Position numbers and translations under genes: made by a program. Below, piece after piece: positions 13,272 through 53,574 of a stretch of 64,000 bases of DNA. Every line of letters begins with the position of its first letter. The stretch's first letter is position 1. A model generated the notes under the pieces. It made no database searches, was not told where the DNA came from, and was given only the letters and a program-made list of their open reading frames with translations. Location of the stretch: positions 384,001 through 448,000 of the forward strand of contig CBDCNQ010000005.1 of the NCBI GenBank assembly GCA_965219445.1, written 5' to 3'. The stretch is from Longimicrobiales bacterium. GTDB taxonomy: Bacteria > Gemmatimonadota > Gemmatimonadetes > Longimicrobiales > Gaopeijiaceae.

Positions 13272-13320
13272 ACGGGTCGACTCCCGTCGCACCGCGCGGG
13301 CGGAAGCAAGAGGAAAGCGA

Positions 13321-13349
13321 GACGGGCCCGGGGTCTCCCCGGGCCCGTC
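13321..13349. terminator. GC hairpin between convergent genes
   Basis: GACGGGCCCGGGG-TCT-CCCCGGGCCCGTC, perfect 13-bp stem; no strong U-tract. Confidence 0.55.
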
Positions 13350-13385
13350 CCAAGGTTTCCGCAATCGTCCCCCTCGCCCCCAGCC

Positions 13386-13785
13386 TCAGTTGGCGATGGC
13401 GGCCGCCCCGGCCTGGGAGATCTGCTCGTCGTCGTCCGCCCGCACGCCGCTGGTCCCGATCGCCCCAATCAGCTGACCGCCGCGCAGAATCGGGACGCCG
13501 CCCGCGAAGGTCACGCCGTCGGGGACCTGCGGTACGGTATAGGCCTCGAGGGCGCTGTCCGTACACCGCGGTCGTGAGGCCCGTAGCCGCGACGGTGGCC
13601 GCCTTCCGCATCGCGACGTTGTAGGAGCCGGCGGAGGCGCCGTCCAGCCGCCGCAGATACACCGGCACACCCTCGATGTCCGCGACGACGATCGTCACGT
13701 TCCATCCGTTACGGCGCGCCTCGGCTTCGGCCGCGTCGAGCGCCGTCCGTGCCAGCTCGTATGTGAGGGCCCTCTGCGAGCGCGA
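13386..13785 (-). pseudogene. GlcG/HbpS-family heme-binding protein, frameshifted and 5'-truncated
   Basis: LTYELARTALDAAEAEARRNGWNVTIVVAD..G.PVYLRRLDGA...RKA, then a frame change near 13555 to FAGGVPI...LIGAIGTSG...DEQI. Confidence 0.75.
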
Positions 13786-14310: not shown

Positions 14311-14436
14311 ACGGCTGGGACGGGCAGCCGGAAAGGCTGGGTGCGCGCTGACGTGGGGGAAGGTCCGTTCCAGCTAGTGGAGTGAAGTGCTTATGGCAGA
14401 GGATTTTCCGCAGGCGGCCCACCGGGTGATGATGGG

Positions 14437-14623
14437 ATGGGTCGTGACTACGGAGGCGCTCCTCCGACAGGTGTGGGGGCGCCGGGGCTCGGACGACACC
14501 GATCGCCTGCACACCGTCGTCAAGAAGCTCCGCCACAAGCTCGGCGACAACGCGGCCGCGCCCACCTACATCTGCACCGAGCGCGGAGTCAGCTACCGCC
14601 TGGCGACCCCGGGTGGGGTGTAG
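14437..14623 (+). pseudogene. OmpR-type winged-helix C-terminal fragment
   Basis: LLRQVWG...VKKLRHKLGDNAAAPTYICTERGVSYRL, homologous to the end of 43882-46308 and in the same gene context. Confidence 0.75.
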
Positions 14624-14738: not shown

Positions 14739-14833
14739 TCAGTCCCAGTCGCCCTCGGCATCCCTCCTGAGCGCGTCGGCGAGCTCGGGATCGCCCTCGC
14801 CGCGGCGGACGGAGCGCTCGACGAGATCGACGC
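14739..14833 (-). pseudogene. 3' half of small membrane-protein gene split by island
   Basis: VDLVERSVRRGEGDPELADALRRDAEGDWD* matches the C-terminus of 46446-46760. Confidence 0.85.
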
Positions 14834-15002
14834 ATCTATTGACGTTCAGTAGCGCTCCATAAAAGCCCAATAACACCTGATATACAAAGAGTTAGGAGAT
14901 TTCCATACTCCAGAGAGACCCCGTTACACCCCTTGACAGCCGGTAGTTTTATGGGGCACTATTTCGGGGCAGACTACCGTATCCCTCACACGGTGCCCCA
15001 AC

Positions 15003-16334
15003 ATGCCACTGACCGACACGGCCATCCGGAAGGCCAAGCCCCGCGAGAAGCCGCGCAAGATCTACGACAGCCGCGGCCTGTACCTCGAGATCGCCCCGCG
15101 CGGCACCAAGGCCTGGCGCTTCAAGTACCGCTTCGCCGAGAAGGAGAAGCGGATCTCCATGGGCATCTATCCCGAGGTCTCGCTGAAGCTCGCGCGGGAG
15201 CGGAGGGACGAGGCCCGCAAGCTTCTGGCCCGGGAGATCGACCCGAGCGCCTACCGGAAGGCACGCAAGCAGTCGAAGCGGCAGTGGGCCAGCAACAGCT
15301 TCGAGGCCGTGGCCACGGAATGGCTCGCGAAGCATTCGCCCAATTGGTCCGCCCGCTACGTCTGGCGGATCGAATGCGATCTGGGAAAGGATGTGTTCCC
15401 GTGGATCGGAGCGAATCCGGTCGCGGAACTCACGGCGCCGGAGCTGCTGGCCGCGCTGCGCCGCATCGAGGAACGCGGCCACCTGGACATGGCGCATCGC
15501 ACGCTTCAGCTCTGTGGGCGGATCTTGCGCTACGCGGTGGCGACGGGCCGGGCCGAGCGGGACGTGTCGTGGGACCTGCGCGGGGCATTTCCTCCGGTGA
15601 AGCGGAGGCACTTCGCGGCGATCACCGATCCGAAGGAAGTCGGCCCCTTGCTCCGGCTGTTGGACGGCTACGTGGGAACGCTTCCGGTACGCTGCGCCCT
15701 GCGTCTGGCGCCGCTGGTGTTCGTGCGCCCCGGAGAATTGCGCAAGGCCCAGTGGCCCGACATCGACCTGAACGGGGGAGAGTGGCGCTACACGGTGACG
15801 AAGACCGACACGCCGCATGTGGTGCCCCTGGCGCGTCAGGCGGTCGAGATCCTTCGCGAGGTTCATAGCCTGACCGGACACGGCCGCTACGTCTTCCCGA
15901 ATGTACGCTATCCGAGCCGGGAGCGGCCGATGAGCCGCGCCACACTGTGGGGCGCGTTCCGGGCGTTGGACATCCGGCGGGACCGGATGACGCCGCATGG
16001 CTTCCGGGCGATGGCGCGCACCATCCTGGACGAGGTGCTGGGCTTCCGGCCCGACTTCATCGAGCACCAGCTGGCCCACCGGGTCAGGGATCCCAACGGC
16101 CGGGCCTACAACCGGACGGCGTTCCTGCCCGAGCGTAGACACATGATGCAGGCTTGGGCCGACTACCTGGACCGGCTCAAGACCGGGGAAGAGATCGAGC
16201 CCGGGACTCTCGGATCGGGGCTTTCCCACATCCCAACGTCTCCGGGGATCCGAAACGCCGACTCATGGCTCGACGTTCCCGGCAGCCCACGGTCTGGCGT
16301 TCTCCGCGGGTCCGCGCCCGGTCCTCTGGGCTAG
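15003..16334 (+). CDS. int: P4-like tyrosine integrase
   Basis: Arm-binding N-domain (YDSRGLYLEI..G.K.WRFKYR), RPGELR, HGFR, QLAH, AYNR catalytic residues. Confidence 0.95.
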   Translation: MPLTDTAIRKAKPREKPRKIYDSRGLYLEIAPRGTKAWRFKYRFAEKEKRISMGIYPEVSLKLARERRDEARKLLAREIDPSAYRKARKQSKRQWASNSFEAVATEWLAKHSPNWSARYVWRIECDLGKDVFPWIGANPVAELTAPELLAALRRIEERGHLDMAHRTLQLCGRILRYAVATGRAERDVSWDLRGAFPPVKRRHFAAITDPKEVGPLLRLLDGYVGTLPVRCALRLAPLVFVRPGELRKAQWPDIDLNGGEWRYTVTKTDTPHVVPLARQAVEILREVHSLTGHGRYVFPNVRYPSRERPMSRATLWGAFRALDIRRDRMTPHGFRAMARTILDEVLGFRPDFIEHQLAHRVRDPNGRAYNRTAFLPERRHMMQAWADYLDRLKTGEEIEPGTLGSGLSHIPTSPGIRNADSWLDVPGSPRSGVLRGSAPGPLG

Positions 16335-16469
16335 CGCGGACACACCGGCTGGACGGTCGGTAGAACTGGCGATCCGCCGCCCCACAGTGGCGCTGAACAC
16401 CCTTCCTGGAAGGATCGCTGGTCGGGAGCGACCCCGCCGGGGAGGGTGGCATGGGCGTGCACATGCCAC

Positions 16470-16622
16470 CTTCCCCGATGCCGTACCAGGCATCCCGAAG
16501 GGGGGGTCGCTCCCGCCACGGCCGCACCCTCCGGAACGGCATCGCCGGTCCTGCGGCCGTGGTGCAACCGCAACGCGGCCAGCGACATGCGGAATCGGCG
16601 GCGCGCACATCGGAATGGCGAT
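16470..16622. repeat. Conserved ~150-bp non-coding element, copy 1
   Basis: CTTCCCCGAT..AGGCATCCC.AAGGGGGGGTCGCTCCC...CGGCCGTG..GCAAC.GCAA...GGCGCGCACAT..AATGGCG, shared with 32782-32930. Confidence 0.65.
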
Positions 16623-16689
16623 GCCGTGCACAAGCACCCCGATGTCGATGTGCACGCGCGGCACGCCACCGACGCCCGCCGTCCGGGGG

Positions 16690-17130
16690 TCAAGATCCGC
16701 CCCCTGGAAGCCGGCTCGAACGCCATGTCGTGAACCCGTCGATCGCCGTTCCGGGCCGCGCGGACCGGAGCCGGTCCTTCAGCTCGACGATCCTCTCGAG
16801 GCAGCCCTGCAGCCCGCCATGCTTCTCGATCACCGCGTCGTCCATGCCGCGGATCGCCTGCTCGATCCGGTCGATCTCGCAGCGGGCCGCGCGGCCGGGT
16901 TCGGGGGTGGCGGGGCTGGAGGCGGCGGTATTGGCCCATCTCCCGAGGGTCGTCCGTGCCCGCTCGAGTTCCCCGGGGGTGCGGAAAGACGGCCACGACC
17001 TCGACGGATCGGCCCCGCTCCCTGAGCGCATCCCAGAGCCGCCGGTGCGCATCGCCCCACGAGCGGAGCGCGGTCGCGGTCTCGTGGCCGGGATCGGCGT
17101 AGACGAAGATGGCGCGCCCGGGGGCGACCG
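16690..17130 (-). pseudogene. Uncharacterised mobile-element protein, C-terminal fragment (frameshifted)
   Basis: AIFVYADPGHETATALRSWGDAHRRLWDALR...IDGFTTWRSSRL; probably the same family as 14078-14310 (recollection, unverified). Confidence 0.4.
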
Positions 17131-17423
17131 CCGTCGAACCGCTCGCAGTCCAAGAGGGCACCTACCTGCGGATGAACATCGACATCGGAAATCAGTCCAG
17201 CGAAGGCGCACAGGCCGTGGTGCTCGGCAACGTCGCCAACTCCCGGAGCTGCGAGCAGTCGCGTCAGTGGGAACGGAAATCCTTCCCGGGCCGCCCGACC
17301 CCGGCACCCATCTCCGTATCTCCTAGTAGCCGAGTCTGGCTGTTGTTCGGCGTCGACTCAGGATTCGAGGCCCTGACGGAAATCTACTTCACGGAAGCAT
17401 CGGTCACCTTCACGCCGATATGA
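17131..17423 (+). pseudogene. Hypothetical exported protein, C-terminal fragment
   Basis: YLRMNIDIGNQS...WLLFGVDSGFEALTEIYF reads as protein-like; no 5' part. Confidence 0.35.
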
Positions 17424-17504
17424 CCACCGCCGGTGCGACCGGTGCGAAGAGCGGGCACGCCCCGCAGTGTGCCCACTGGTGGATGGGCCGAGAGCGCTGT
17501 CCAG

Positions 17505-18146
17505 CTACAGGCGGTTCAACCACTGGGCGAGCGCCTTCTCCGGATCGGCCAGCTCCTGGACCGAGGTATACCAGCTGGCTTCCCAGCCAGTCTCCGGAAG
17601 GCCGATGAACAACATCAGGTTGAGCGGATAAGCCTCGCTGTCGGTGCAACGTCGGAAGTCGTCGCGGAAGAGGAATACCGGCTTCTCCCACGCGATCGCC
17701 ATGCCTACCTCCACCATCACGCCCTCGTCGGGGGGACAGCCGTTGACGACCGCGAAGAGCCCATCCGTGTCGCGTACGTCGTGAAGGTTCGCCTGACCGA
17801 TCCGGTAGGCGAAGTTCGGGCTCGTCGGGTTGATCCCGTCGCTGCGGGCGAACGGCTCCCACACCTGGGCGCCCAGCGATTCCAGGGCCACCACGAGTTC
17901 CTGCAGTGGCCCCGCGCGCTGTTGCGCCGAGAATCCATATGGGTTGGCCAGATACAGGATCTTTCCGGAGGTTCCGGGCGTGGCGGCGTCCGCCGGAGAA
18001 ATCGGCGCGCCACCTTCCGCAAAGTCACCAGCGAGACGCTCTGTCGCCGCCCGTGTGTGACCATCCTCGGCGCCACATCCCGTGGCCACCAGCAATGCCA
18101 ACATCGACATCATGCTCACTCCGACCAGGTCATGCCTCCAAGTCAT
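17505..18146 (-). CDS. Nucleoside 2-deoxyribosyltransferase-family protein with lipoprotein signal
   Basis: YLANPYGFS, VWEPF, DEGVMVEVGMAIAWEKPVFLFRDD; N-terminal LALLVATGC. Confidence 0.8.
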   Translation of the reverse strand: MTWRHDLVGVSMMSMLALLVATGCGAEDGHTRAATERLAGDFAEGGAPISPADAATPGTSGKILYLANPYGFSAQQRAGPLQELVVALESLGAQVWEPFARSDGINPTSPNFAYRIGQANLHDVRDTDGLFAVVNGCPPDEGVMVEVGMAIAWEKPVFLFRDDFRRCTDSEAYPLNLMLFIGLPETGWEASWYTSVQELADPEKALAQWLNRL

Positions 18147-18655
18147 CGATCCCTCCTCCCTCAGGTGTTGGTTCTTCTCCTTGTCGTAGCGGCTCGAGGT
18201 TAGGTGGTCAAACGGCGCGGGAGCGCGCGACGACCTCGTCTGCCGTCAATGGGTGATCCCTGCGATCTGCGCCTGTGCGATCGGGATGCTGTCGGATGGC
18301 TGATCGCCGCGCCGTCACCGCCTCCGCCCGCGTATCGCCGGCCGAGCTTGTTCGGCGGTGGGAAAACGACTGGGTCTTCTAACGCAACTCCTCATCCTAG
18401 CTCGGCTGCCCGGAGTTCATCGTCAGATCCGATCGACCGACCCCGGGAATGCCTGGGGCGAGGGGAGGATCCGGCGCCCCACACTCGCAGCGCCGCCCGA
18501 AGATCGCGACCGGCCCATCCTGTCAGGCTCCGGCAGTGTTATCTTGGGAGCGGCAGGACGCCTTCGGGGGACGGCGCGCCGGAGGCGAAGACCCGCCGGA
18601 ACCAATTCGGGAGATGGCGCTTCCGATCCAGCAACTGACAAGAGAGGACGCTCCC

Positions 18656-19270
18656 ATGCGCCGCATTCGAGCAGGATTGATACTGAGTGTCGGAGTGGCC
18701 GTGACATCTTGCGGCGGCAGCTCGACGGAGCCCGAGGACTCGCTGACAGGGGCGGAGGCCCTCGCGCTCCTCGAGGTAGCGATGAACCCAGGCCTGCAGC
18801 TGACCGACGAATTGCAGCCCGGGAGTGAGACCCTGACCCCTGACGGCGCCGTCCTGCAGTTCACCATCCCGTGCACGATGGGTGGAACGGTCGGGATGAC
18901 CGTGCGGTTCAGCCCCGCCGGAGAACCGGACGTCGACGGCGGCGGCGTGGCAGTGTCGTCGACCCTCGTTCACTCGGGTTGTATCGAAAGGCACGAGACG
19001 AGCGGAATCACCTTCACCCTGGACGGCGCACCCGAGCTGGAGATGAGCATCGAGCTGTCGATCTCGACAGAGTTCATATTCCAGCTAAGCGGCACAGTGG
19101 ACGGGACGGTTCGCTGGGCCACGGACGACGGCCGGAACGGGTCATGCGCGATCGATGTGGCGCTGGAGCCGGGGGATGATCCGTCCGCTCTCTTGAGCCT
19201 CACCCTCACCGGGCAGGCGTGCGGCGCCCAGATCATGGAGTCGTTCACCACGACCGAGCTGCTCGGATGA
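18656..19270 (+). CDS. Hypothetical lipoprotein
   Basis: GAGG RBS; MRRIRAGLILSVGVAVTSC lipobox; beta-rich with paired Cys. Confidence 0.7.
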   Translation: MRRIRAGLILSVGVAVTSCGGSSTEPEDSLTGAEALALLEVAMNPGLQLTDELQPGSETLTPDGAVLQFTIPCTMGGTVGMTVRFSPAGEPDVDGGGVAVSSTLVHSGCIERHETSGITFTLDGAPELEMSIELSISTEFIFQLSGTVDGTVRWATDDGRNGSCAIDVALEPGDDPSALLSLTLTGQACGAQIMESFTTTELLG

Positions 19271-19336
19271 ACTAACCCGAAGCACCGGGACCGGGCAGCC
19301 GAATCCCTCCCCGACGGGGACCGCGCCAGCAACGAT

Positions 19337-19582
19337 TCAAGTCAGCCCGCGCGGCTCCCGCATCCAGCCCGGAATATCCCGCGCCGCGCACACGGCGCGC
19401 CAGATATCGATGTCCGCCACCCTCTCCACATAGAAGAGCAGATACGGGAACCTCCTGACAGTCCGCGAGCGCAGGCCGGGAATATCCAGCTCCTGCGCGT
19501 AGCGGGGCGAGCCGGCGGCGACCATCTTCCAGCGCATCGATGAGGGCCATCGCAACCGCCGGTCCAGCCTCGCCCAGATCAT
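19337..19582 (-). pseudogene. RelE/ParE-family toxin, degenerate
   Basis: GSPRYAQELDIPGLRSRTVRRFPYLLFY...IDIWR...ARDIP; 5' part frameshifted or truncated, no antitoxin. Confidence 0.7.
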
Positions 19583-20136
19583 GCTCCACCGGGTAGTGTC
19601 GCGATATTTGTGTAAAAAGGGGGTGAGGGGTCCGGGGAGGGTGGACAGCCCGGGAAAGAGAGAGGAAGCTCCTTGTGAATGTTCATCATCACATGAACCC
19701 GGGGAGTCCGGGCCTGCGCCAGCAGGTCCGCCTCCGGCATGGCCTCGGCGTGCTCCATGATCTGCTCGGGCAGACTCTTCATGGCTTTTCCCTCCGCGTC
19801 ATGAATCGAGCAATCGATATCACGTCGTCCTCCTCGGAGCGACGCTCTCGAAGCCCCCGGATGCCCTGCAACCGAAGTCCGCCACTGCGGGTGGACGATG
19901 CCAAATGGGCCGTGTCCGGGCTGGCCTCCCTGTCGAACTCCATGCACTTGACGGGGCCTCCGGCGAGCGCTGTGGAGGGTGTGTCTGCCATGCCACTGGC
20001 GGCGGTGTCCAACAGCTCGCGTACCGTACTGGCTATCTCTAGCCGTTACAGGCATTTAGGACATTTCCTAAGAGTTGACTTCCTTGCATGCGGGTCTTCA
20101 CCGTTGTGGCCATGAAGACGCGGGAGCAGTGCGGCC

Positions 20137-20652
20137 ATGGAGACGCTGGAGCAGCAGTTCGACTCGCGGGTGAGGGTGTTCCTCGGGCGGACGGGCCTGA
20201 GTCCGACGACGTTCGGCATGAAGGCGTTGGGCGACCCGAACCTGATGCGCCAGCTCGACGGCGGACGCTCGCTGTCGCTCAGAACGGCGGACCGGGTTCT
20301 GGCGTTCGTGGCGGACTACGACCTGGACTCGGGCGGCCCTCGGACTCCGCCCCGAGGCCACCGGCGCCGGAAGCCTTCGCCGGGGGCGAGGAGAACGAGG
20401 AGCAGCAGAGCGATGAGTGAACAACCGATCGAACAGAGAACGAACCCGCCGACCCGCTTCCTGCGGCGGCCGGAGGTAACGGCCCGCACGGGTCTGGCGC
20501 GGAGCACGATCAAGGTGCGGATGCGCGAGGGGCACTTCCCCCGGCCGGTCTCGCTGGGCTCGCGCGCCGTGGGCTGGATCGAGGCGGAGGTGGACGAGTG
20601 GATCCGCCAGCGGATCGCGGAAAGCCGGGACACGGAGAGTGCCGCCCACTGA
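20137..20652 (+). CDS. alpA: AlpA-family regulator/excisionase with N-terminal HTH
   Basis: C-terminal FLRRPEVTARTGLARSTI...FPRPVSLGSRAVGWIEAEVDEWI; N-terminal GLSPTTFG.KALGDPNL HTH-like domain. Confidence 0.8.
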   Translation: METLEQQFDSRVRVFLGRTGLSPTTFGMKALGDPNLMRQLDGGRSLSLRTADRVLAFVADYDLDSGGPRTPPRGHRRRKPSPGARRTRSSRAMSEQPIEQRTNPPTRFLRRPEVTARTGLARSTIKVRMREGHFPRPVSLGSRAVGWIEAEVDEWIRQRIAESRDTESAAH

Positions 20653-20768
20653 CCCTTAAGGAGATAACGAACAGACGATGAGAAACGTTGTTGAGGACGG
20701 TGACGGCCGACTTCGATCTCGTCCACCTCAGGAACGGACAGGAGATCCGGCGCGAGCGCTGGTCAGCT

Positions 20769-22037
20769 TGACGTACCCCCTCCTGCGGTACCACTTGCTA
20801 TGTTAGACCTGAAGCCATTGGCGGTCCCTGGAGCTGAGGCATTCTGAGGAACCAAGGTGATGGTTTCAATGCTTCCGGAGCGGGGGTAGACCGCCGCAGG
20901 CGCTGTGGGGTCGAACGGTATTGTACACCCGCCGCCACTGCTCGACGAGTACGACGGCCTCGGGCAGTGTGTAAAAGATCTCTCCGTTCAAGAACTCGTT
21001 CCTCAGCTTGCCGTTGAAGCTCTCGTTGTAGCCGTTCTCCCACGGACTGCCCGGCGCGATGTAGAGGATCTGGACCCGCAGCCTGGCCAGCCATCTCCGC
21101 ACCAGTTTCGCCGTGAACTCTGGCCCGTTGTCCGAGCGCAGATGCTCGGGCGGACCGTGCCGAGCGAAGAGATCGGTGAGCACCTCGAGAACGTCGTGAG
21201 CTCGAGTCTTTCGACCGACCTTGATCGCCAGACACTGCCGCGTGTACTCGTCGAGCACGGTCAGAAGCTTCAGCGCACGGCCGTCATGGGTCCTCGTGCT
21301 TACGAAGTCGTAGGACCACACGTGATTCTTGTGCAGTGGCCTGAGCCGGATGCACGAGCCATCGTTGAGCCACAACCGACCCCGTTTCGGTTGCCGTCTG
21401 GGCACTTTCAGCCCCTCCTGCCTCCAGATACGCTCCACACGCTTGTGGTTCACCTCCCAGCCCTCGATGCGTAGCAGGTTCGTGATCTGTCGATACCCGT
21501 ACCTGCCGAACCGGCTCGCCAACCGTATCACGTCCGTGCGTAGCGCCGACTCGTCGACCCGCACCTTCTTCACCCGACGCTGAGTCGAGCGCGGCTGACC
21601 CAGTACGTGACACGCGTGACGTTCACTCGCCCCGAGTCGCTGACGTACATGCACCACGCACCTCCGTCGGCGCTCGGGGCTCAGAAGTTTCCCTTGGTCG
21701 CTTCCTCCAGGATCAGCTTGTCCACCGTCAGGTTCGCCACCGCTCGCTTCAGCCGTGCGTTCTCCTTCTCCAGCTCCTTGAAGCGTCGAGCTTGATCCAC
21801 CTTCATCCCCCCGAACTCCTGGCGCCACCGGTAGTACGTCTGCTCGCTGATCCCCAGCTCCCGGCTCACCATCCCCACCGTTTTGCCGTTCGCCAGACCC
21901 ACCTCCGCCTCTCTCAATGCCGTGATGATCTGCTCCGGCGTGTGTCGTCTCCTACTCATTCTGACCTCCTCCCTGATGGTTGCGACCAAAGCCGCATCCT
22001 AACATCAACTTCGGTCTCGGTTCAGGGGGTCACGTCG
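20769..22037 (-). mobile_element. IS3-family insertion sequence, near full length
   Basis: IRs TGACGTACCCCCT / AGGGGGTCACGTCG; orfA 21681-21959, GGGAAAC frameshift, orfB with DDE motifs; 1-nt frameshift near the orfB end. Confidence 0.9.
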
Positions 22038-22891
22038 CTCGCGACGACATCCTGGAGGTGATCCAATACCGCAGGGCGATGTGGCACGCGGAGAGGACGC
22101 TGCGAGAGCTCCCGCTCTCCCTTCGGGTCATTCGCGAATCGCACCGGGTTCTTCTAGCGAGCGGCCGAGGCAAACAGCGCTCACCGGGCGTGTATCGGTG
22201 TCTCCAGAACTGGATCGGCCCGCCTGGTTGCCCCGTGGAAGAGGCCACGTTCGTTCCAATCGCCACGCAGAATCTGGTCGACGCCATGAGCGCTTGGGAA
22301 CGATACATGCACCGGGACGAACCCGATGGCTTGGTCCAACTTGCGATTCTACATGCCGAGTTCGAGGCCCTTCATCCGTTTCTGGACGGTAATGGCCGCA
22401 TGGGTCGCATGCTCGTGCCCCTCTTCATGTGGCAAAGAGAGCTGATTCGCCAACCGGCCTTCTACATCAGTGCCTATTTCGAAGCCAACCGGGACGCTTA
22501 CTACGAAGGGTTGCGATCCGTATCGCGCGACGACGACTGGAGCGGGTGGTGCGAATTCTTCCTCGAAGCCGTTCGGACGCAAGCGGAGGATAATCTGATG
22601 AAGACCGAGGCGATTCTTGGACTCTACGAAGAGATGAAGGACCGTGTCCTCGAGGTTACCAACTCACGGTATGCGATTCGGGTCCTCGACTCGATCTTCC
22701 AGCATCCAGTCTTCACGAGCGCCCAGTTCGTTAAAGGAACCGAATCGTCTTCGCCCACTGCGCGTCGGATTCTCGCACGCCTGTGTGACTCGACCGTACT
22801 GCATAAGATCGAGCCTGCGCGCGGTCGGCGGCCCGCTCTATTCGTATTCCCCCGCCTGCTCGACGTTGCGGAAGGTAGGAAGAACGGATGA
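22038..22891 (+). pseudogene. Fic-family protein, 5'-truncated by IS3
   Basis: HPFLDGNGRMGR Fic motif; the N-terminus of the ORF-track call lies inside the IS end. Confidence 0.85.
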
Positions 22892-23468
22892 CGGTCACGA
22901 ATGATCGCCAAGGTCTTTTGTCGCTCGTATTGCCGCCGATATGAGCGACAAGGTGTCTTGTCGGTCACGGGTGATCGATAACACGGAGATCCGCTCCCTG
23001 AGTTCGTCAATTCCGTCCTCTACCACGGTGACGCCCTTGGACAGTCCCGCCCCGCTTGGCCAACTTGTTCGTGACCGACGCCCTGACCAACAACGCCACC
23101 GGCGACGAGTTCATCGATCGCGCGCGGATGGCCTGCCAACGGACCCAATCACTGTCTGCAATTGTACGCTTATGGACTACAGCGCCCGAAAAGGACTGAT
23201 CCTGGGCGAGCCGTGCGCCGGAACCGACGGGCGTCAGCCCGGCTCCTGCTACTGCGCTGCGAGCGTACCCGTCCGTGTTCAGACCCGCAAGGCCCGTGCC
23301 CGAAACCGTCTCGGGAGGGATGGCCATGCGCTCCGTTAGAAGATAGGTAGCGGCTAGCTCCTGTACAGCGTGGCTTGAAGGTGGACGCCGCAAGGCTGAC
23401 CGCCGAAGCCGTCGGGCCACGTAGCTACCCCGAAATTTTCTTCTTCTCGCTATCAGGAGTGCGTTCAA

Positions 23469-23723
23469 ATGCGGTACCTCATAAGCTACGACCTCAACAA
23501 GCCCGGCAAGAACTACGATGCCCGCATCAACGCGATAACCGCGATGGGTGGCACGCGGGTCCTCTTGTCCCAGTGGGTCGTCCGGCGCAACGATACATCT
23601 GCGTCGGGCCTACGTGACCACTTCTGGACCTTCATGGACGCCAACGACCGACTCTTGGTCGTGTCCATCGACAACAGCGACTGGGCTGGCACGAACCTCA
23701 TGGTCAAAATCAGCAGCCTTTAA
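23469..23723 (+). CDS. Stand-alone Cas2/VapD-like small protein
   Basis: AGGAG RBS; MRYLISYDL...LLSQWVV...MDANDRLLVV fits the ferredoxin-fold Cas2-like pattern. Confidence 0.6.
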   Translation: MRYLISYDLNKPGKNYDARINAITAMGGTRVLLSQWVVRRNDTSASGLRDHFWTFMDANDRLLVVSIDNSDWAGTNLMVKISSL

Positions 23724-24009
23724 CGACTCGTGCAGGGCGGCCAAGAGTTGGCGTTCGTTGTTGGATACAGGCTCCACTTGAAGGCCGCCCTGCCACCAGA
23801 ATATCTTCATCGTTCTTTCTCCTATACCGTTAGTGGTATTTGATCGGTGGTAGCGGACTTCGTGCCGATTTTGGTTGGCGTGTGGAAACGTTTCTTGTCC
23901 TCCACGATCTCTTTGACCATGAGTAGCTGTACGCAGTCGTAGGCGACGTCTTCATATTCCCATTGCCCTGCTTGGGCTGCTGCGGCTTTCATGGCCTTGG
24001 AGGGCTCCT

Positions 24010-24660
24010 TGTTCGATATCGCGTGGCTCTTGGGAGAAGGAGTGGTTCGGCTCGACGTACACGACGACCGGCTTCAGCTCGCGGCACGCGAACTTCAGAA
24101 GCTGGAAGCCGAAGGATCTCAACCGCCTCCTATCAATTTTGGCGTCTATGCGCGGTCAGGAGACAAAGTCGTGACTGTCAGTACGCGCACACAGCTCGCG
24201 AGGCAGGCGCTCGAAAAGTCGCTTGAGGTGCGCGAGGAGTACGGCTATGACTTCCGGTCGCCTTTGTGCGTGTACGATCTCTCCGACTGTGCAGGCGTGA
24301 AAGTGCAGTTCGTCAATGACGTGAGCATGGAAGGCGTGTACGCTGCACTCGCCAAGCCGACGATCCTGCTCTCGTCTCTTCGCCCTCTCGCCCGCCGTGC
24401 CTTCACGTGCGCCCACGAACTTGGGCATCACGTCTTTGGGCATGGATCAACCATCGACGAGCTTAGAGACGGTTTCCAGAGCGGAATGTCCTCCTCAAAC
24501 GAGTTCCTTGCAGACACCTTCGCGGGCTTCATCCTGATGCCAGCCCAAGGCGTGAAGCGAGCCTTCTCCACGCGTGGGCTCGCTGCGACAACAGCGACGC
24601 CAGAGGACATCTACACGGTCGCATCGTCCTTTGGGGTCGGGTACGAAACGATCATCGGTG
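24010..24660 (+). pseudogene. XRE regulator tail plus ImmA/IrrE metallopeptidase, both truncated
   Basis: DIAWLLGE...LAARELQKL/KPKDLNRLLSILASM (frameshift), then from ~24171 FTCAHELGHH, EFLADTFAGFILMP, FGVGYE. Confidence 0.7.
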
Positions 24661-24775
24661 TCGTGCACGCTGGGAAACACGGTCAGTGTTGTTGCGCCAA
24701 TTCCCGCCCTTGCCGTGGCACATGGTGCGTGTCTGCCCTTGCCCGATTTCCTGTCTGTTCCTTCGGTGTTGTGGC

Positions 24776-25015
24776 TCAGGTGCCGTCGATGGTCAGCGAT
24801 ACGAAATTAGACTCGAAGAGCTTCTTGTCGTCCCGCACTTCGCACCGCTGAAGGCAGTAGAGTTTCCAGTACATCGCCCACGTAGGATGGTCGGGAGAAA
24901 AATGCTCAATGTTCAGCTCGAGTTCTTCTGCTCTCTGAGCAGTGATGACTTGTCCGTGAGTGCGATTGGACCGCGGATCCAGGAGCTCCTCAACGACGGC
25001 GGTGTATGGAACCGT
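24776..25015 (-). pseudogene. SDH/ClpP-class serine protease C-terminal fragment
   Basis: THGQVITAQRAEELELNIE...YWKLY...KLFES. Confidence 0.4.
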
Positions 25016-25168
25016 TGACGAGCCCTTCAAGAGATCCTCGTCCAAGGCACGAGTACGCGCCACAACACGACGGACCGTGTCCGATCTCGTGATCGTCGCG
25101 TCCACCGACCGGTAGTAACGCAGCACAAGTCCCGCAGCGGCTTGGAAGGCGTCATGTCCGACACGTGT

Positions 25169-26432
25169 TTACCGGGACCGGTCGGGACCTCCTCTCCGTG
25201 TATAAGCCTCTTCTGGATAGACGTAACCGGGATCCAGGGTGGTCCCGTCCTCTGGCATGATTCGCAGGAGGTTGTCCCGGGCCACTTTCTCTGCAGCGCC
25301 AGTGGTCAATCTCGATAGGAGCCGATCGTACCGGCGGACAGTATCCTCGTACCCTTCGTAGCGCCCAACCGCATCTGATCCAATCACGAAGTTGTCGGGG
25401 TATTGCTCGATCAATCCCGTCCACGCACTCAGGTCCTCTAGCACGTAGTCCTCGTATACCACCCAGGATAGGTCAATGTAGACGTGGTTTCTGTGAGTCG
25501 CGAGTACCGACGCCAGAACTACTGGAAGAGAATCGAACGACTATGCGACGGCTGATGCCGGCATGGCACCAGATGAAGGTCGTGTTGGAGAACTCGTTGA
25601 ACGCATGCAGCAGCTCCGGAAGATAGTCGGTGTCCCTCGCCTCTCCTTGCGGGGAGATGGGGGCAACGTTGTGGTGAATGCTCACAGGTAGACCGACTCG
25701 GCCAGCGAAGTCGAAGATGCGGAACAGTGCCGGGTGATCCGCGTGAGGACGCTCACCGGTCGTCAGGTTGGTCAAGTCATCGTGGCGAGACATCACCTCG
25801 CCGATTCCCTTGAACACACCGGGGAATTCCTTAATGCGCTTTACGATCATGTCCACCGCACCGAGGTCCGTCCCGTCGAATCCGGAGACAAACGGGAACA
25901 GCCGTTCGAGCTGAGCCGCCGCCCCGTGTACTCGGCGGTAGTCTTCGATCGCTAGTGCTAGGACATAATCAGTGTCTCGCGCTCGCACGACGCGGGAACT
26001 GCTATCCAGGTAATACGTTGGCCGGGAGGGGTCACCCACCGCCCATTTCTTGAGAAAGGGCATACCCGTGATGACCGCGTGGCTCACGTTGGCCTGGTCC
26101 ATGGCCCACAGCACCGCCTCGATACGCCGGCCCCGTTCGCCAGCGGGCAGAGTGTTGGCCGGAGAGCTGTAGACTAGCCTCCCATCGACGAGGTATTCGC
26201 CGTTCTGTAGAAAGTCCAGGATATGGAGGTGGGAGTCGGCCGTGAGGGGAACCTGCACCGTCGGACTCACAGGCACGGGCGCCGAGGGCCTGGGAGGGCC
26301 ATGCTGGGTTTGAGTTGCGCACGCCACCAACGTCGGCAACACCGTGACCATCAGTCCCACCGCGCGCAACGGACACGATTGAACTCCCTGGCCAGTGCCC
26401 AAAGCCAACCTACGTCCAGCAACTTCGATCAC
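25169..26432 (-). pseudogene. Amidohydrolase-superfamily protein, frameshifted near 25520
   Basis: DSHLH, GIGE, PVSIHH, WCHAG, then in the next frame VYIDLSW...FVIGSD; possible lipoprotein signal (LVAC). Confidence 0.75.
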
Positions 26433-26489
26433 GAGCCGACCTCCTAGCGTCGCTTCAGATTCGCCGCGAACACGGGAGAAAAGATAGCC

Positions 26490-26812
26490 ACCGTCCAGAG
26501 GGGAAAGATAGCGCGCCGCAAGCTGAGTCTGCTACAGCTGGCCCAGGAGTTCGGCAAGGTGAGCAAGGCGTGCAAGATCGTGGGCTACAACAGCCGGCAG
26601 CAGTTCTACGAGATCAGGAGGAACACGCTAAGCTTCCGTGCGGGCGGAAGTTGTTGTAGTCGGCCCGCCAGTGATCGAGGACCCGCTGGGCGTCCTCGAG
26701 ATCGATGAACCAGTGTTGCCGATAGGCACTCACGCCGAAGCAGCGAGTTGAACGCCTCGATATGGGCGTTGTCGGTCGGCTTGCCCGGTCGGCTGAAGGA
26801 GAGCCGTATTCG
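26490..26812. mobile_element. IS481 5' fragment (+) abutting IS3 integrase-core fragment (-)
   Basis: KIARRKLSLLQLAQEFGKVSKACKIVGY..RQQFYEIRRN; SRPGKPTDNAHIEAFNSLLRRECL...WRADYN..RPH. Confidence 0.75.
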
Positions 26813-27289
26813 GTTCCCAAGGGGTGTGGGGTGTGATGCGCCCTCCGAGTTCATCGTGGTTTGATCAGAGGTCTACGCTGAGGCCAGTGCGAAGATTGAA
26901 GTCACCGTTCGAGAGGCCCTCCGGTGGGCGTGAGCCCCGTCGCCACTCAAGTGAGACCGTCGCCCGGAGAGTATCTGTGAGCGGTATCGAACCGCTCAGC
27001 TCGTTCAGAACCCTGGCATCCCCCAAATCCGTCAGTTCAGGGGTCGTCATGTCGTTCTCCCGAAAGGTTCGGATGTTGTGAAAAAACGATTCCTAAACCC
27101 TTCCGGGAGCGGCGTGGCCACCGCCGCCGCGCCCGACTCTTAACGGTCGCGCGCCGGCGGCCTAACTGTCAGGTGATGACCGTATCAATACACCTTGGTC
27201 CTTACACCTTGGTCCTTTGGCGTCCCGGGCGTTCGCCCGGCGCACGCTTTGCTCTTGCTCCACGGGGAAGCGGTTGCGATAGTCGGGGC

Positions 27290-27679
27290 ATGGAGACGAG
27301 GGGATTCATCCGGCGCCGCGGTTTCTGGCTGCTCGCGCTGCTGTGGCTGCCGGCCGGTGTCATGGCGACTGCGGCGGTGCGCTTCGGACCGGGGACGGGA
27401 TCGGTGCCGCCCGGCATGTGGGTAATGGCGATGCTGATGTCGGGGGGAGGGCTGGTGTTCGTCGCGCCCTGCGGCCTGCCGCTGGCGCTGGGTTGCCGGC
27501 GGCTCTGGCATCTGGGCTACCGCCGCGGCGCCTGGTGGGCGGGCATCGGGCTCGGTGCTGTCACGGTGGCGGCGTCGCTGTTGGCGGGGCTGCTCGGGCC
27601 GCTGGCGATCGCGATCTATGCGGCCGTGATCAGCCTGCCGGTGTGGATCGCCTGGTGGTGGTTGGCGCGCCGGAGTTGA
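27290..27679 (+). CDS. Small four-TM membrane protein
   Basis: Hydrophobic 129-aa ORF with GC3-rich codons; similar to 8591-8980. Confidence 0.7.
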   Translation: METRGFIRRRGFWLLALLWLPAGVMATAAVRFGPGTGSVPPGMWVMAMLMSGGGLVFVAPCGLPLALGCRRLWHLGYRRGAWWAGIGLGAVTVAASLLAGLLGPLAIAIYAAVISLPVWIAWWWLARRS

Positions 27680-28135
27680 TAACCGACGACGGCTGCAGGC
27701 TGGCGGTCACGACCGACCTGCCCGAACGCGGATTCACCAGGAATTGGAAGTGAACGTTGCCATGGGTGACTGGTCCACGAGAATCCCGACATCCTGTTGG
27801 AGGCGCAGCGTAGCGCACGCGGCAGATGATCGAACGGCACAGTCCCAATAGCCGCGCTTTCCAGACTGATGCGCAGCCCCGACCTGCAAAAAGGGTTCAG
27901 GGTACTGCGTGATCGCAATAAGCTTGATATGACGTTCGAGAAGTTGATTGTTCGCCATGCCGAGCTCTGATGGTCGGCGACCGGATCGTGGGGGCAGTCG
28001 GGTGCAGTGGGGCCATGGGCTCTCAGGAATCAAGCGGCCTGCCAGGCGGGCGCGGATACGATGCAGTAGAAGTCAACGCCGAAAAGGTGGCTGTCCGGTA
28101 GCTGGGTCGTGCGTGGCTGCCCGAGCACCCGGCAC

Positions 28136-28261
28136 GCAGTGCAGTGATGATCTGCTCCGGAGTGTGTCGCTTCCTTCCCATCCTGACCTCCTCGCTGAAA
28201 AGCTTCACAGACCAGGTCGATCCTAACATTGCACCTGGTCTCGTTTCAGGGGGTCAGGTCA
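28136..28261 (-). mobile_element. IS3-family left-end remnant
   Basis: TGACCTGACCCCCTGAAACGAGACC followed by [16 protein letters not shown]. Confidence 0.8.
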
Positions 28262-28355
28262 CGGGTGCGATTATGGGGCAACTCTGGGGGCACAATACAG
28301 ATACCCCGAGCATATGAGCTTTTAGAAACAACGACTTACGGTCTTTTTATATAGG

Positions 28356-28440
28356 CGAGATCGACGCGGCGTCCCAGGTCGGAGAGTCCGGCGGCTCGGG
28401 CAATGGCGTAGAGGGAAGCCAGGACTGCCGCTGGGGCCAG
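28356..28440 (-). pseudogene. Upstream piece of the small membrane-protein gene split by island
   Basis: LAPAAVLASLYAIARAAGLSDLGRRVDL matches LALAAVLAAIYAVARAAGLADLGSRVDL of 46446-46760. Confidence 0.85.
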
Positions 28441-28444
28441 ATCC

Positions 28445-28670
28445 AGATCGAGGTTCTCCTCAGGCGCTCGGGGAGGAGCTCGAGCGTCCGCTGGCGGAGC
28501 CAGGTCCGCCTCTAGTACGTCGCTGGAACACTCGGGACATCGCCGTTTTGCCCGTTGTTGACACCGCATAATGCGGGCTCCTCAATATACGGGTATGGCG
28601 ATTTTGACGGCCCAGTGTTCCGACCGTCGGCGGGCGAGTTTGGCCGCTACGGCGGGAGAGCCAGGCTACC
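28445..28670 (-). repeat. ~200-bp res-like repeat, copy A
   Basis: Near-identical to 55523-55706 (inverted) and similar to 59144-59366. Confidence 0.85.
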
Positions 28671-28765
28671 CCTTGGGGCCACGCTTCGCGGGTCCCCGGC
28701 AGGGGCTGGCGGGGGGGGGGGGGGGGGGGGGGGGGGGCGTTCCCCGCCCCCCTCGACCCCCCTTC
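28655..28765 (+). other. Putative oriT region (copy 2) with poly-G tract
   Basis: CTACCC.TTGGGGCCACGCTTCGCGGGTCCCCGGCAGGGGCTGGCG shared with 53377-53422; G27 at 28711-28737. Confidence 0.5.
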
Positions 28766-31489: not shown

Positions 31490-31971
31490 TCAATAGGTGT
31501 GTAAACGTATCAGGCGGCATTCTTCCTCTGTTGAGTTGAGACGGGCTTTCCGTCTTCGAACTTCCTTCCTTCAAACACGTCCTTGAGGAGGTGAGGACCA
31601 GCTCCTTCGTCCGCCTCGCGAACAACGGCAGCACCCGACTCTCGAACCGCTCCTCGACGCCCCGAACCCGAGGGCGTCGGAGTGTGATCGTGCCCGAGCT
31701 CATCGCCAACCGCCTCGGCAGAGTACAGATGGTGTGTAAACGTATCAGGCGGCATTCTTCCTCTGTTGAGTTGAGACGGGCTTTCCGTCTTCGAACTTCC
31801 TTCCTTCAAACACGTCCTTGAGGAGGTGAGGACCAGCTCCTTCGTCCGCCTCGCGAACAACGGCAGCACCCGACTCTCGAACCGCTCCTCGACGCCCCGA
31901 ACCCGAGGGCGTCGGAGTGTGATCGTGCCCGAGCTCATCGCCAACCGCCTCGGCAGAGTACAGATGGTGTG
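31490..31971 (-). mobile_element. Tandem 2 x 235-bp internally deleted IS256 remnant
   Basis: Exact repeat with period 235 (31496, 31731, 31966); GTITLRRPRVR..ERFESRVLP joined to the transposase C-terminus and TTTACACACCTATTGAC end. Confidence 0.75.
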
Positions 31972-42837: not shown

Positions 42838-43295
42838 CCTGGCTCCTGGCTCCTGGCTCCTGGCTCCTGGCTCCTGGCTCCTGGCTCCTGGCTCCTGGCT
42901 CCTGGCTCCTGGCTCCTGGCTCCTGGCTCCTGGCTCCTGGCTCCTGGCTCCTGGCTCCTGGCTCCTGGCTCCTGGCTCCTGGCTCCTGGCTCCTGGCTCC
43001 TGGCTCCTGGCTCCTGGCTCCTGGCTCCTGGCTCCTGGCTCCTGGCTCCTGGCTCCTGGCTCCTGGCTCCTGGCTCCTGGCTCCTGGCTCCTGGCTCCTG
43101 GCTCCTGGCTCCTGGCTCCTGGCTCCTGGCTCCTGGCTCCTGGCTCCTGGCTCCTGGCTCCTGGCTCCTGGCTCCTGGCTCCTGGCTCCTGGCTCCTGGC
43201 TCCTGGCTCCTGGCTCCTGGCTCCTGGCTCCTGGCTCCTGGCTCCTGGCTCCTGGCTCCTGGCTCCTGGCTCCTGGCTCCTGGCTCCTGGCTCCT
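42838..43295. repeat. Heptanucleotide SSR (CCTGGCT)x~65
   Basis: 458 bp of perfect 7-mer repeat, directly read. Confidence 0.97.
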
Positions 43296-43502: not shown

Positions 43503-43772
43503 CTACGGGTCGGCGAGATCCGGGACCGCGCGGGCCAAGCGGGTGTCGAATGGGAGTGGAGTTGCCGAGAGCCGAAGAACCAGGCAAACCGCCGCGAACG
43601 CCAAACCCAGGTGTAAGACGATGGTCACGCCGTAATCGGCGAGGATCAGTGGCCAAGACGGCGCGAGATGTTCGAGGCGCGATCCGGCGAGGAGGATGGC
43701 GGAGCCCGCGAGTGCGGCGGTCAGCCCCACGCTGATCCTCCAGGGTTGCATCGCTAGAACTTGAGCGCGGCC
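43503..43772 (-). pseudogene. Internally deleted duplicate of the 46355-46790 segment
   Basis: MQPWRISVGLTAALAGSAILLAGSRLE..; also shares the preceding gene end (AALKF* vs AALEL*) and downstream non-coding sequence. Confidence 0.8.
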
Positions 43773-46445: not shown

Positions 46446-46760
46446 TCAGTCCCAGTCACCGTCGGTGTCCCTCTTGAGGGCATCGGCGAGGCCCGGATCG
46501 CCCTCGCCTCGCCGTACGGAGCGCTCGAGGAGATCAACGCGGCTCCCCAAGTCGGCGAGTCCGGCTGCACGAGCGACGGCGTAGATGGCGGCCAAGACGG
46601 CGGCCAGCGCCAACCCCAGGTGCAGGGCGATGAGAACGCCATAGTCCGAGAGGATCAGTGGCCAGAACGGCGCGAGATACTCGAGGCGTGATCCGGCGAG
46701 CAGGATGGCCGAGCCGGCTAGGGCGGCGGTCAGCCCCGCGCTGATCTTCCAGGGTTGCAT
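46446..46760 (-). CDS. Small two-TM membrane protein (intact copy of island target gene)
   Basis: 104 aa; homologous pieces at 14739, 28356 and 43503. Confidence 0.8.
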   Translation of the reverse strand: MQPWKISAGLTAALAGSAILLAGSRLEYLAPFWPLILSDYGVLIALHLGLALAAVLAAIYAVARAAGLADLGSRVDLLERSVRRGEGDPGLADALKRDTDGDWD

Positions 46761-49888: not shown

Positions 49889-51930
49889 AGCCGGCCCTCC
49901 TCGCGGAGCCGCCAGTAGCCCACGTCCCTCGGCAGGTAGTGGGGCTTCAGATAGACGCGCCGGGCCGGCAGGGACTTCGTGCCGTCGTAGGGCAGGCAGA
50001 TCGCCTGATAGTTGGCGAGGAGGCTGAAGTCCCGGGGCGTGAAGACCGGCTCCCGGGCCTGCCGGAACGACTTGCTCGCGCCGATCGTGCCCCGCCCGCC
50101 TCCGGCACGTCCCGAGAGCAGCGAGAACTCCGGCCTGCCCGTCGTCTCGGTGAACGTGTAGGAAGGCTGCGTCTTCATGACGCTGCCGCACATCTCCGAG
50201 GCGATCCTGGCCGAGGACTCGTCGCTCAAGGACAGGAAGATCCGGGTGCGGAGCGTCTGGACCAGTGTGCGCCAGGCCTCCGTGCCGGACAGCACGGAGC
50301 GGAGCGAGGAGATCGACTGCGTGGCCACGATCGGGATGCAGCGGCACTGCCGCGTCATCGCGAACGCCTTCTCGTCGCCCGAGGGGTCGTCCTGGCCCAC
50401 GGTGGCGAACGCCTGGTACTCGTCGCAGATGAACACGGCGGGCCGGAGGTAGCGTCCGGGCCGGCGGGCGGCCTCGGCGGGCCGCCGGAGGAGCGCCTGC
50501 ATCCAGGCGTTCTTGAGCAGCACGCCGATGGCGCGGCCGAGCGCCGGGTTCGCGCCCGCGGGCATGTTGAGGGCGAGGACCCGGCCCTCTTCGATCAGCT
50601 GGGCGAGCGGCGGCAGCCGGCGACGGAGCCCCGGCATGGGCCGGACGGCCTCGGGGTCCTCGTCCGGCGCATCGTTACCTATATGTATAGATGGGGACTC
50701 ATCCGATTCCGGAGGCGGCGGACAGAAGACTCCGGCCACGCCGGGCTGATCGAACAGCGAGAGGAAGACGGAGATGCCCTCGACGATCGAGGTGCGGAGC
50801 TTGGCATCGAGCGCCATCCAATCGTTCAGGTACCAGCGCTCGATCGCCTCCACCTGGTCCCTGAGTTCGCTGCCTGCGCCGCTCTCGCCTTCCTCGGTCT
50901 CGAACGGGATCTCAAGCTCGGCGAGCCGATCCCGGAGGACCGGGTCGAGCCGGCACGTCACCGTGTCCTCACCGGAGGTATATATCCAGACCCAGTCATT
51001 CAGCGCTTCCGGATGGCCGATCATGTCGTCGTGGGAGATGACGACGCGCGCCGGGCACGCCTCAGCCACCAGGTCCTGGGCCTCGCGGATTCTCTCGGCG
51101 AATAGTTCCGCGTCGATCGTGCAGCGGTAGACATCCTGCAGCGTGACCCAGCCCCCCGGCAGGAGCCGGTACAGTTCGATGATCCAGCGCACGAGATTCG
51201 TATAGGCTTGCTGCCAGAACGGTTCGCGGCTCTTGCCGAAGAGCTGGTTGATCAGGGATGAGACGCTGTAGGCGAGCGAGTAGGTGTCGAGCAGCGGATC
51301 GTCGAGCGGGTTCCACTGCCAGGACCCGTCCAGCCCGATTTCCAGGTAGTCGTCCGCGCGGCCGGCCTCCTCGAGGATCCCCCGCACGCTGTGGCAGAAG
51401 TCGCCCTTGACCTCGAGCACCAAGGCGCTGGCCCGTCGTGCGGGCCGGTCGGCCTGCCACGAGAGGAGCTGCTGGGCGAACGGATACATGCAGGCCGAGG
51501 TCTTGCCGGAGCCGACGGCGCCGACGATCAGGATGCCGGTGTAGAGCCCCGTCTCTGGAACGACGAGCCAGGAGGGCCGCTCGCTCTCGCGCGGAACGGT
51601 CGGGTGGTGGAGCTCGCCGACCACGAGCGAGGGCGCCTCGTCCTCGGGCGACACGGGCCAAGCAGGCAGCTTGCCCCGGCCGCCGCCCCTCGCCCGCGGC
51701 TGGAGCCAGACTCTCCAGACCGAGAGGCCTAAGCTCCCGGCGAGCACCACGGCGACGGCGGGCGCCGCGTAGTACCAGACGCGGATCACCGTGTGGAAGT
51801 CCGGATCGTGGTAGGCGATCAAGTCCAGCACGGGGTTGCCGCCGCTGGCGGGAAACGGCGCCCACAAGGCGTGGGCGATCGCGGCCGCCGAAGCGAGGCC
51901 CACGAGTACGAGCGTCGCCGGCCTCAGCAT
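49885..51930 (-). CDS. Type IV coupling protein (TraD/VirD4-like)
   Basis: Two N-terminal TMs, Walker A GAVGSGKT, LEVKGD, WNPL, EPFW, Walker B FICDEYQ, ATQS. Confidence 0.85.
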   Translation of the reverse strand: MLRPATLVLVGLASAAAIAHALWAPFPASGGNPVLDLIAYHDPDFHTVIRVWYYAAPAVAVVLAGSLGLSVWRVWLQPRARGGGRGKLPAWPVSPEDEAPSLVVGELHHPTVPRESERPSWLVVPETGLYTGILIVGAVGSGKTSACMYPFAQQLLSWQADRPARRASALVLEVKGDFCHSVRGILEEAGRADDYLEIGLDGSWQWNPLDDPLLDTYSLAYSVSSLINQLFGKSREPFWQQAYTNLVRWIIELYRLLPGGWVTLQDVYRCTIDAELFAERIREAQDLVAEACPARVVISHDDMIGHPEALNDWVWIYTSGEDTVTCRLDPVLRDRLAELEIPFETEEGESGAGSELRDQVEAIERWYLNDWMALDAKLRTSIVEGISVFLSLFDQPGVAGVFCPPPPESDESPSIHIGNDAPDEDPEAVRPMPGLRRRLPPLAQLIEEGRVLALNMPAGANPALGRAIGVLLKNAWMQALLRRPAEAARRPGRYLRPAVFICDEYQAFATVGQDDPSGDEKAFAMTRQCRCIPIVATQSISSLRSVLSGTEAWRTLVQTLRTRIFLSLSDESSARIASEMCGSVMKTQPSYTFTETTGRPEFSLLSGRAGGGRGTIGASKSFRQAREPVFTPRDFSLLANYQAICLPYDGTKSLPARRVYLKPHYLPRDVGYWRLREEGRL

Positions 51931-52116
51931 CGCTCTGACAACCTTCCCGTAGGGCAGCCATGTTGGGAATAGCCATCTCGTCCAGCTAAGTCCCATAACG
52001 CATATAACTGACTTGTTTATATTGACTTATCACGATGCATAAGGATCTCTCCTGTCCCATAGCGATCCGCTTCGACCCCTTGCATCCGCTAATCTGTGGT
52101 GGATATATTGGTATGT

Positions 52117-53313: not shown

Positions 53314-53364
53314 GACCTGGAGGCCGAACCGGTCCGCTGAGGCGCTGGCTCATGACCCTTACCT

Positions 53365-53555: not shown

Positions 53556-53574
53556 GATTCGCTGCCGCGAACCA

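Follow-up and report, generated by a model that had tools for sequence, protein, structure and literature searches.

Positions 14834-28367 of a 64-kb stretch of DNA from a member of the Longimicrobiales (Gemmatimonadota) very probably represent an integrative island that lies inside a small gene of a conjugative element and was placed there by its own P4-type tyrosine integrase through site-specific recombination. The stretch, referred to below as the window, is C5:384001-448000 (contig:position) of a repeat-rich, five-contig metagenome-assembled genome of 4.56 Mb. The occupied gene, here called the small gene, is the invariable end of a conjugation module that consists of the genes for a type IV coupling protein (T4CP), a VirB11/TrbB-like ATPase, p76, ArdC, p295 and the small protein itself. 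An island at this place had been proposed in an earlier note on the same DNA.

Boundaries of the island and recurrence of its junction

The island is 13,534 bp long and is bounded by an exact 12-mer, CGAGATCGACGC, which occurs twice in the window (14822-14833 and 28356-28367), at both borders between gene homology and island homology, in agreement with the earlier note. By itself the pair is weak evidence, since 64 kb of DNA at 65% G+C can readily contain such a repeat by chance: with at most one mismatch, 6 matches were found in the window against 1.69 expected, and 6 were reached in 2 of 100 shuffles. Its weight comes from the location of the two copies. The left flank (14739-14833, minus strand) corresponds to the last 95 nt of the small gene and is 84% identical to 46446-46540 (E 2e-22), with the homology ending exactly at the repeat, and the right flank (28356-28446) aligns to 46529-46620, with the homology beginning exactly at the repeat. 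These reference positions belong to an intact paralog of the gene in the same window (copy C, 46446-46760), which carries a variant core, GGAGATCAACGC, at the corresponding place (46529-46540), as the earlier note had also reported. When the two flanks were joined by script with the repeat retained once, an uninterrupted frame of 57 residues resulted. The claim that the flanks rejoin in frame holds, the frame ending as quoted there, with one correction. The split copy (copy A) is not a whole gene: it lacks its first ~47 codons, and from 28447 on its place is taken by a repeat that is otherwise found beside mobilisation genes (55523-55706). At the right junction, the target-gene frame read into the island stops after 6 further codons.

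The two island arms carry the composite motif ATGGGGCA-N5-8-GGGGCA, which was found solely at 14951 and 28273 of the window, both times on the plus strand (0 expected, 100 shuffles). The arm-like motifs of the earlier note are confirmed, and the motif is kept in the arms of related islands. The 12-bp repeat was also considered as the target duplication of a transposase and was rejected as such, as there are neither terminal inverted repeats nor a transposase at the ends, and the ends are homologous to integrase-island arms elsewhere.

The nearest integrase set comprises the copies at least 91% identical to the island's integrase, int1 (int1 itself, a fragment on C2, a copy on C4, and loci L009, L010 and L011). 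In four of these six the left junction lies at the identical position of the small gene. At C2:225470 the island arm is 100% identical, while the gene flank, at 86%, belongs to another element variant (97% to the C5:32161 group vs 88% to the window's copy). In L010 and L011, whose integrases are 98% and 93% identical, the left junction falls at the same position, next to the small gene's 3' end. The right junction recurs within the genome at C5:1017785 and C1:193217, the gene there extending from the start codon as far as residue 78, and in other genomes in G003 (L095) and G002 (L096). Right junctions at the small-gene site number five across four genomes, and the same codon position is occupied in the window's genome and in three others, that is, a fixed internal site as used by elements that target genes carried by integrative and conjugative elements (ICEs). 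The earlier suggestion that the integrase targets the last gene of the coupling-protein module is borne out by these junctions. That note had also allowed that close homologs might consistently use a different target; once their attL and attR sites were mapped, the small gene recurred.

Recurrence of this kind could in principle come from copying of one ancestral composite of gene and island, either through duplication or along with a transferred host element. That element is multicopy, and the flanks at C5:1017785 and C1:193217 are nearly identical and may stem from one event. On the other hand, the arm is closer than the gene flank to the window's island in six of seven comparisons (e.g. 100% vs 86% and 96% vs 68%), and the order is reversed in the seventh (L096); the gene flanks differ by 14-32% where the arms differ by 0-8%. 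Such discordant divergence, in either order, indicates separate insertions into different gene copies. The flank at C2 comes from a different element variant, and sister integrase lineages are equally precise at other genes (see below). We consider copying improbable as the source of the recurrence.

It is scarcely credible that the junctions are an assembly artefact in which repeat copies were mis-joined at the shared 12-mer. The genome does contain dozens of related integrases and element copies, and none of the assembled contigs from public runs, which are short, spans the left junction with 31 letters to either side of it. The same junction sequences were nevertheless recovered in three other, independently assembled genomes, and the window sits on a contig of 1.7 Mb.

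Integrase relatives and their target genes

Int1 contains all three domains of P4-type enzymes (PF13356, 1e-26; PF22022, 5e-33; PF00589, 9e-17) and matches the NCBIfam domain model PRK09692 at 6e-66, which is under the model's full cutoff. In an eight-sequence alignment, R242, K267, H332, R335, H359 and Y369 are invariant, and we take these residues to be the catalytic R-K-H-R-H-Y set of tyrosine recombinases. Genome-wide, 33 places match each of two integrase queries over >70% of their length.

Relatives were taken as the best 80 of 363 in species-representative genomes. The 56 distant ones (Acidobacteriota, Pseudomonadota and others) share 57-71% identity, and a transfer-messenger RNA (tmRNA; 31 loci) or transfer RNA (tRNA; 16 loci) gene ends at most 300 bp upstream in 47 of the 56; seven of the nine remaining loci have <640 bp of upstream sequence. 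The premise of the earlier note that P4-type integrases usually sit at tRNA or tmRNA genes therefore applies to this sister clade. Among the 24 Gemmatimonadota loci no tRNA or tmRNA was found within the same 300 bp. Integration at the 3' end of such genes is a habit of the P4-type family and not a strict requirement.

In a maximum-likelihood tree of 46 sequences (loci up to L059; rows with an open frame <380 aa dropped), the Gemmatimonadota integrases form a clade with 100/100 support, and the lineage of int1 descends from a clade that sits beside tmRNA and tRNA genes. The Gemmatimonadota subclades divide according to target, which is the small gene, the T4CP gene at ~codon 277 (5 rows, 100/100) or the type IV secretion system (T4SS) operon gene p309 at ~codon 207. 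In a further subclade (L015, L016, L019 and L020), one flank matches DNA inside another integrase island of the genome. The arms beside the cores are homologous between subclades, and the cores differ. Within the nearest integrase subclade, no recurring target other than the small gene was found.

These relationships lead us to lean, with some reserve, towards a wider reading, in which a clade of integrases in the Longimicrobiales would have moved from tmRNA and tRNA genes onto the genes of one conjugative-element family. Its lineages would share one attP scaffold and differ in cores of 9-12 bp, each aimed at a different gene, namely the terminal small gene, the coupling-protein gene or a gene of the T4SS operon. 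As a guild of satellites they would land in a self-transmissible element and also travel with it. They would then be the first example known from outside Firmicutes, and also the first to rely on arm-type tyrosine integrases.

Three loci of the p309 subclade in other genomes (L022, L023 and L028) adjoin chromosomal genes (PGA_cap, ThrRS and a TIR-domain gene). They share only the last ~20 nt before the junction with the p309 site and are probably secondary sites.

The window contains a second P4-type integrase, int2 (405 aa, in the region 52096-55706), whose start lies 100 bp upstream of the start codon of T4CP. Behind it come MbeD-like, relaxase and MobC/NikA genes and a repeat of 184 bp, an arrangement that resembles a small mobilisable element next to the T4CP gene. 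Elsewhere in the genome, int2 relatives interrupt the ATPase gene (~residue 393, C5:12348), ArdC (~251, C5:1002988) and T4CP (~527, C5:583743).

The integration itself likely took place by recombination, through the P4-type integrase, between the core of a circular island and the same core in the small gene. For the details we hypothesize the following course. The N-terminal arm-binding domain of the integrase would bind the ATGGGGCA..GGGGCA motifs. Strand exchange would occur within the core's central TCGA or beside it, as is suggested by one island at a secondary site for which both junctions were found (left in L009, right in L098): the letters flanking TCGA segregate between the two junctions of this island. 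The AlpA-family protein, likely an excision factor to judge by its family, would direct excision. Insertion would remove the last 26 residues of the small protein, and the island would travel with the element on transfer, as the site lies inside the element's borders. Many element copies per genome would offer many landing sites.

The host element, the island and their present state

By its gene content the host is a conjugative element. A complete copy (C5:1047960-1066283) holds T4SS, coupling protein and integrase in one block, as an ICE does, in the order int, AlpA, VirB3, VirB4-like ATPase, CagX/VirB9, TrbI/VirB10, the unnamed p309, TrbL/VirB6 and VirB8, then T4CP, VirB11/TrbB, ArdC and, last, the small gene. 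The conjugation module occurs at least eight times in the genome and is often broken. Of the 23 matches to the small gene there, 11 cover its full length, two end at residue 78 and two begin at residue 66. The exact core is present in 10 of the 11 intact copies, the exception being copy C with its two changes. The small protein has a two-helix, membrane-like N-terminus and a charged tail; it has no Pfam or NCBIfam match, its 653 homologous clusters are all unnamed, and in the ESM Atlas it scored only 0.80-0.81, which is chance level.

A hybrid gene for a GAF-PAS histidine kinase with receiver and OmpR-type output (43882-46308) converges on intact copy C, a pairing seen again at C5:21313-24196. 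In the same position left of split copy A lie 59 residues that remain of a similar gene end (14387-14623, 49% identity). A third, partial copy of the small gene (copy B, 43588-43751) is 83.5% identical to 46597-46760; it lacks the part with the attachment core and keeps the downstream sequence. The idea that a second insertion had divided one gene into copies A and B was rejected, as their 24-nt overlap is only ~15/24 identical and copy B is a deletion derivative of the same form as one at C5:24327.

The features of the island and its surroundings are compiled in Table 1. Several further unnamed open reading frames (ORFs) lie inside the island. The island is a composite. Its backbone (14834-17120 and 19592-20702) occurs in several genome copies, against a single one for the cargo (22046-28134). 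It has the integrase, AlpA-family gene and flanking direct repeats expected of an integrative mobilisable element (IME); of an own origin of transfer (oriT) or relaxase, as IMEs have, only the remnant of a MobC gene was seen.

Table 1. Features of the island, its target gene and related sites in the window
Feature	Position	Strand	Evidence and remarks
3' fragment of small target gene (~codons 74-104 + stop), including attL core	14739..14833	-	84% over 95 nt to 46446-46540; 90-91% to variants at C4:206420 and C5:1065969
attL core CGAGATCGACGC	14822..14833		Exact repeat; border of gene homology and island homology
Left island arm (P' arm)	14834..15002	+	ATGGGGCA-N7-GGGGCA at 14951-14971, inverted TGGGGCA at 14994-15000; 100% at C4:1190011 and C2:225470; conserved in L009-L011
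int1, P4-type tyrosine integrase, 443 aa	15003..16334	+	Pfam Arm-DNA-bind_3, Phage_int_M, Phage_integrase; starts 169 bp from left repeat
Nucleoside 2-deoxyribosyltransferase-like gene	17505..18146	-	Pfam PF05014, 3e-23; 75% paralog after int1 paralog at C5:598619
54-bp remnant of MobC/NikA-type mobilisation gene	18295..18348		90.7% to 55350-55403, inverted
AlpA-family protein gene	20137..20652	+	Pfam PF05930, 3e-20
Complete IS3-family insertion sequence (orfA 21681-21989, orfB 20866-21828)	20776..22033	-	Pfam HTH_Tnp_1, rve, rve_3; 3-4 further genome copies
SoFic-like Fic gene	21980..22891	+	PADLOC SoFic 4.6e-89; residues 22-297 = profile positions 88-358 of 361; Pfam Fic; apparently cut at 5' end by abutting IS3
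M78 (ImmA/IrrE-like) peptidase-domain gene	23991..24851	+	Pfam PF06114, 4.5e-14; PADLOC capP 5e-14
Cargo block common to another genome	25006..27927		99.7% over 2923 nt to G003 (L105), there too adjoining a right junction in the small gene
End fragment of multicopy insertion sequence	28136..28240		10 further genome copies
Right island arm (P arm), about 94 bp	28263..28355	+	ATGGGGCA-N6-GGGGCA at 28273-28292; 92-94% at C5:1017785, C1:193217, C5:999579
attR core CGAGATCGACGC	28356..28367		Exact repeat; right gene/island junction
Middle fragment of small target gene (~codons 48-73), 5' part of gene missing	28368..28446	-	Alignment to copy C (46446-46760)
Repeat replacing 5' end of target gene	28447..28716		95.6% to 55523-55706 (inverted), 88.7% to 59171-59364, 96.6% to 53370-53428; related to region beside MobC/relaxase genes
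Intact paralog of target gene (copy C), 104 codons, last gene of T4CP-VirB11-p76-ArdC-p295-small module	46446..46760	-	Variant core GGAGATCAACGC at 46529-46540 (two changes)
Unoccupied site of sister T4CP-targeting integrase lineage, inside intact T4CP gene	51164..51177	-	Exact match to flank common to L012, L014, L029 and own C5:564877

Several results weigh against the reading given at the outset. The remaining two of the six closest integrase copies lie outside the small gene at look-alike cores, CGAGCTCGACGC in L009, within a BACON-domain gene, and AGGGATCGACGC in the own copy at C4:1190011, which indicates a specificity for sequence and not for the element. Ten exact cores in the genome are unoccupied, so that activity is low or blocked. 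No relaxase was found in the island, either as a Pfam Relaxase match among ORFs of at least 90 aa or as a tblastn match of the window's relaxase, and its independent mobilisation is therefore doubtful. The complete host element likewise showed none among the ORFs scanned and no tblastn match of the window's relaxase, though it may have a relaxase of an unfamiliar family. At the island's own locus no conjugation genes adjoin copy A, whose 5' part is missing, and the host element has decayed to this gene remnant; beside it are left only the 59 residues of the convergent response-regulator gene, which is found after the intact copy as well. Among the short assembled contigs from public runs, none cleanly skips the island and none shows a circle junction, results that speak neither for nor against excision. 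One contig (in X1) that joins 14755 to 28356 with 39 other letters between them was considered as an emptied site and rejected, being most simply another intact paralog of the small gene.

The two insertions at look-alike cores in unrelated DNA would fit a one-off secondary insertion, with the real target of the integrase elsewhere. We regard this as highly improbable in view of the recurring left and right junctions in the small gene and of the nearest subclade, in which no other target recurs. The choice of site is probably targeted, with recognition of the core sequence rather than of the element.

A doubtful but conceivable alternative is that the segment is not one island but a decayed integrase module with unrelated, IS3-assembled cargo that is no longer mobile. 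The unique cargo is framed by the IS3 element and the end fragment of an insertion sequence next to a multicopy backbone, the SoFic-like gene is cut, and 54 bp of a MobC gene are left where the relatives L013 and L015 carry MobC and relaxase genes after the integrase. Against this, both ends, both cores, the integrase and the AlpA-family gene are intact, and another genome has the cargo that adjoins the right arm at 99.7% identity and at the same type of junction, which indicates that the composite moved recently and as a unit. This alternative concerns present activity and is compatible with a targeted origin. With the host element around it decayed, the IS3 cut in the SoFic-like gene and so little of the mobilisation gene left, the island at this locus is probably stranded. 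The description "parasite of a parasite" in the earlier note suits the integrase family better than this copy today.

Other repeats and genes of the window were recorded as well. A 39-bp stretch in the repeat right of copy A (28672-28710) has 23 further copies in the genome and also occurs after int2 (53370-53428). A perfect 241-bp tandem duplication lies at 31496-31971; its unit has 27-28 further genome copies and may be a small non-autonomous repeat element. An ORF of 3004 aa (33815-42829) probably encodes a surface adhesin; its domains are of the fn3, SWM_repeat, Calx-beta and Ig-like types, and it has long internal repeats. Just downstream of this giant gene is a perfect tandem array with a 56-bp period and 100% identical copies (42838-43295). 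The gene for an HbpS-like haem-degrading protein (13246-13698) seems to be split over two frames, with Pfam matches in two overlapping ORFs, and is probably frameshifted.

Significance and comparison with known systems

On the choice of site depend both the cost of an integrating element to its host and the way in which it spreads. Here, close relatives of a classical tmRNA-site integrase appear to have been re-aimed at coding sequences of a conjugative element, with homologous arms and a change in the short core alone. This makes them a compact system for studying how arm-type tyrosine integrases change specificity. The layered parasitism of conjugative elements, so far described from streptococci and clostridia, also shapes the genomes of uncultured marine Gemmatimonadota, in which dozens of such integrases are present. 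For annotation there is a warning, in that conjugation genes which look "broken" in these genomes are in many cases attachment sites with an occupant. A limited search of titles and abstract openings found no description of such a system outside Firmicutes or in Gemmatimonadota.

The P4-type islands at tmRNA and tRNA genes (L033-L088) share with this island the integrase architecture, at the 57-71% identity given above, an integrase that starts ~165 bp from the junction and, in many loci, a nearby AlpA-family gene. In those islands the junction is at the 3' end of the RNA gene (47/56) and the target is restored, whereas here a coding target is truncated.

Relaxase-less mobilisable islands (the MGIs of Vibrio and SGI1-type islands) encode an integrase and an excision factor of their own and rely on a conjugative element already resident in the cell (PMC5704250). 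The present island resembles them in having an integrase and a putative excision factor and no relaxase of its own; unlike them, it has its landing site inside the helper itself, and no oriT was identified in it. IME_oriT of Streptococcus, an element with a tyrosine integrase, enters the nic site of the oriT of Tn916 and ICESt3-type ICEs (PMC5704250). Both it and this island are tyrosine-integrase elements with a specific site inside conjugative elements, of which several can be occupied in one cell. IME_oriT has a non-coding target and its own relaxase, whereas the target here is coding and no relaxase was found.

The closest precedent is provided by the IMEs of Firmicutes, mostly with serine recombinases, which occupy fixed internal sites in genes of Tn5252-superfamily ICEs (sites 1 and 2 of traG/VirD4, Maff2 and SNF2), such as Tn6104 and IME_Sco1050_traG (PMC5704250). 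They differ from the present island in their serine recombinases, against a P4-type tyrosine integrase with arm sites here, and in their host phylum, Firmicutes against Gemmatimonadota; the target here is an unnamed gene of 104 codons at the end of the element. In both cases a small integrative element lies at one defined site inside a conjugative-element gene, which is disrupted, and in both, related elements use several sites in the same element, which for the Firmicutes IMEs include two in the coupling-protein gene.

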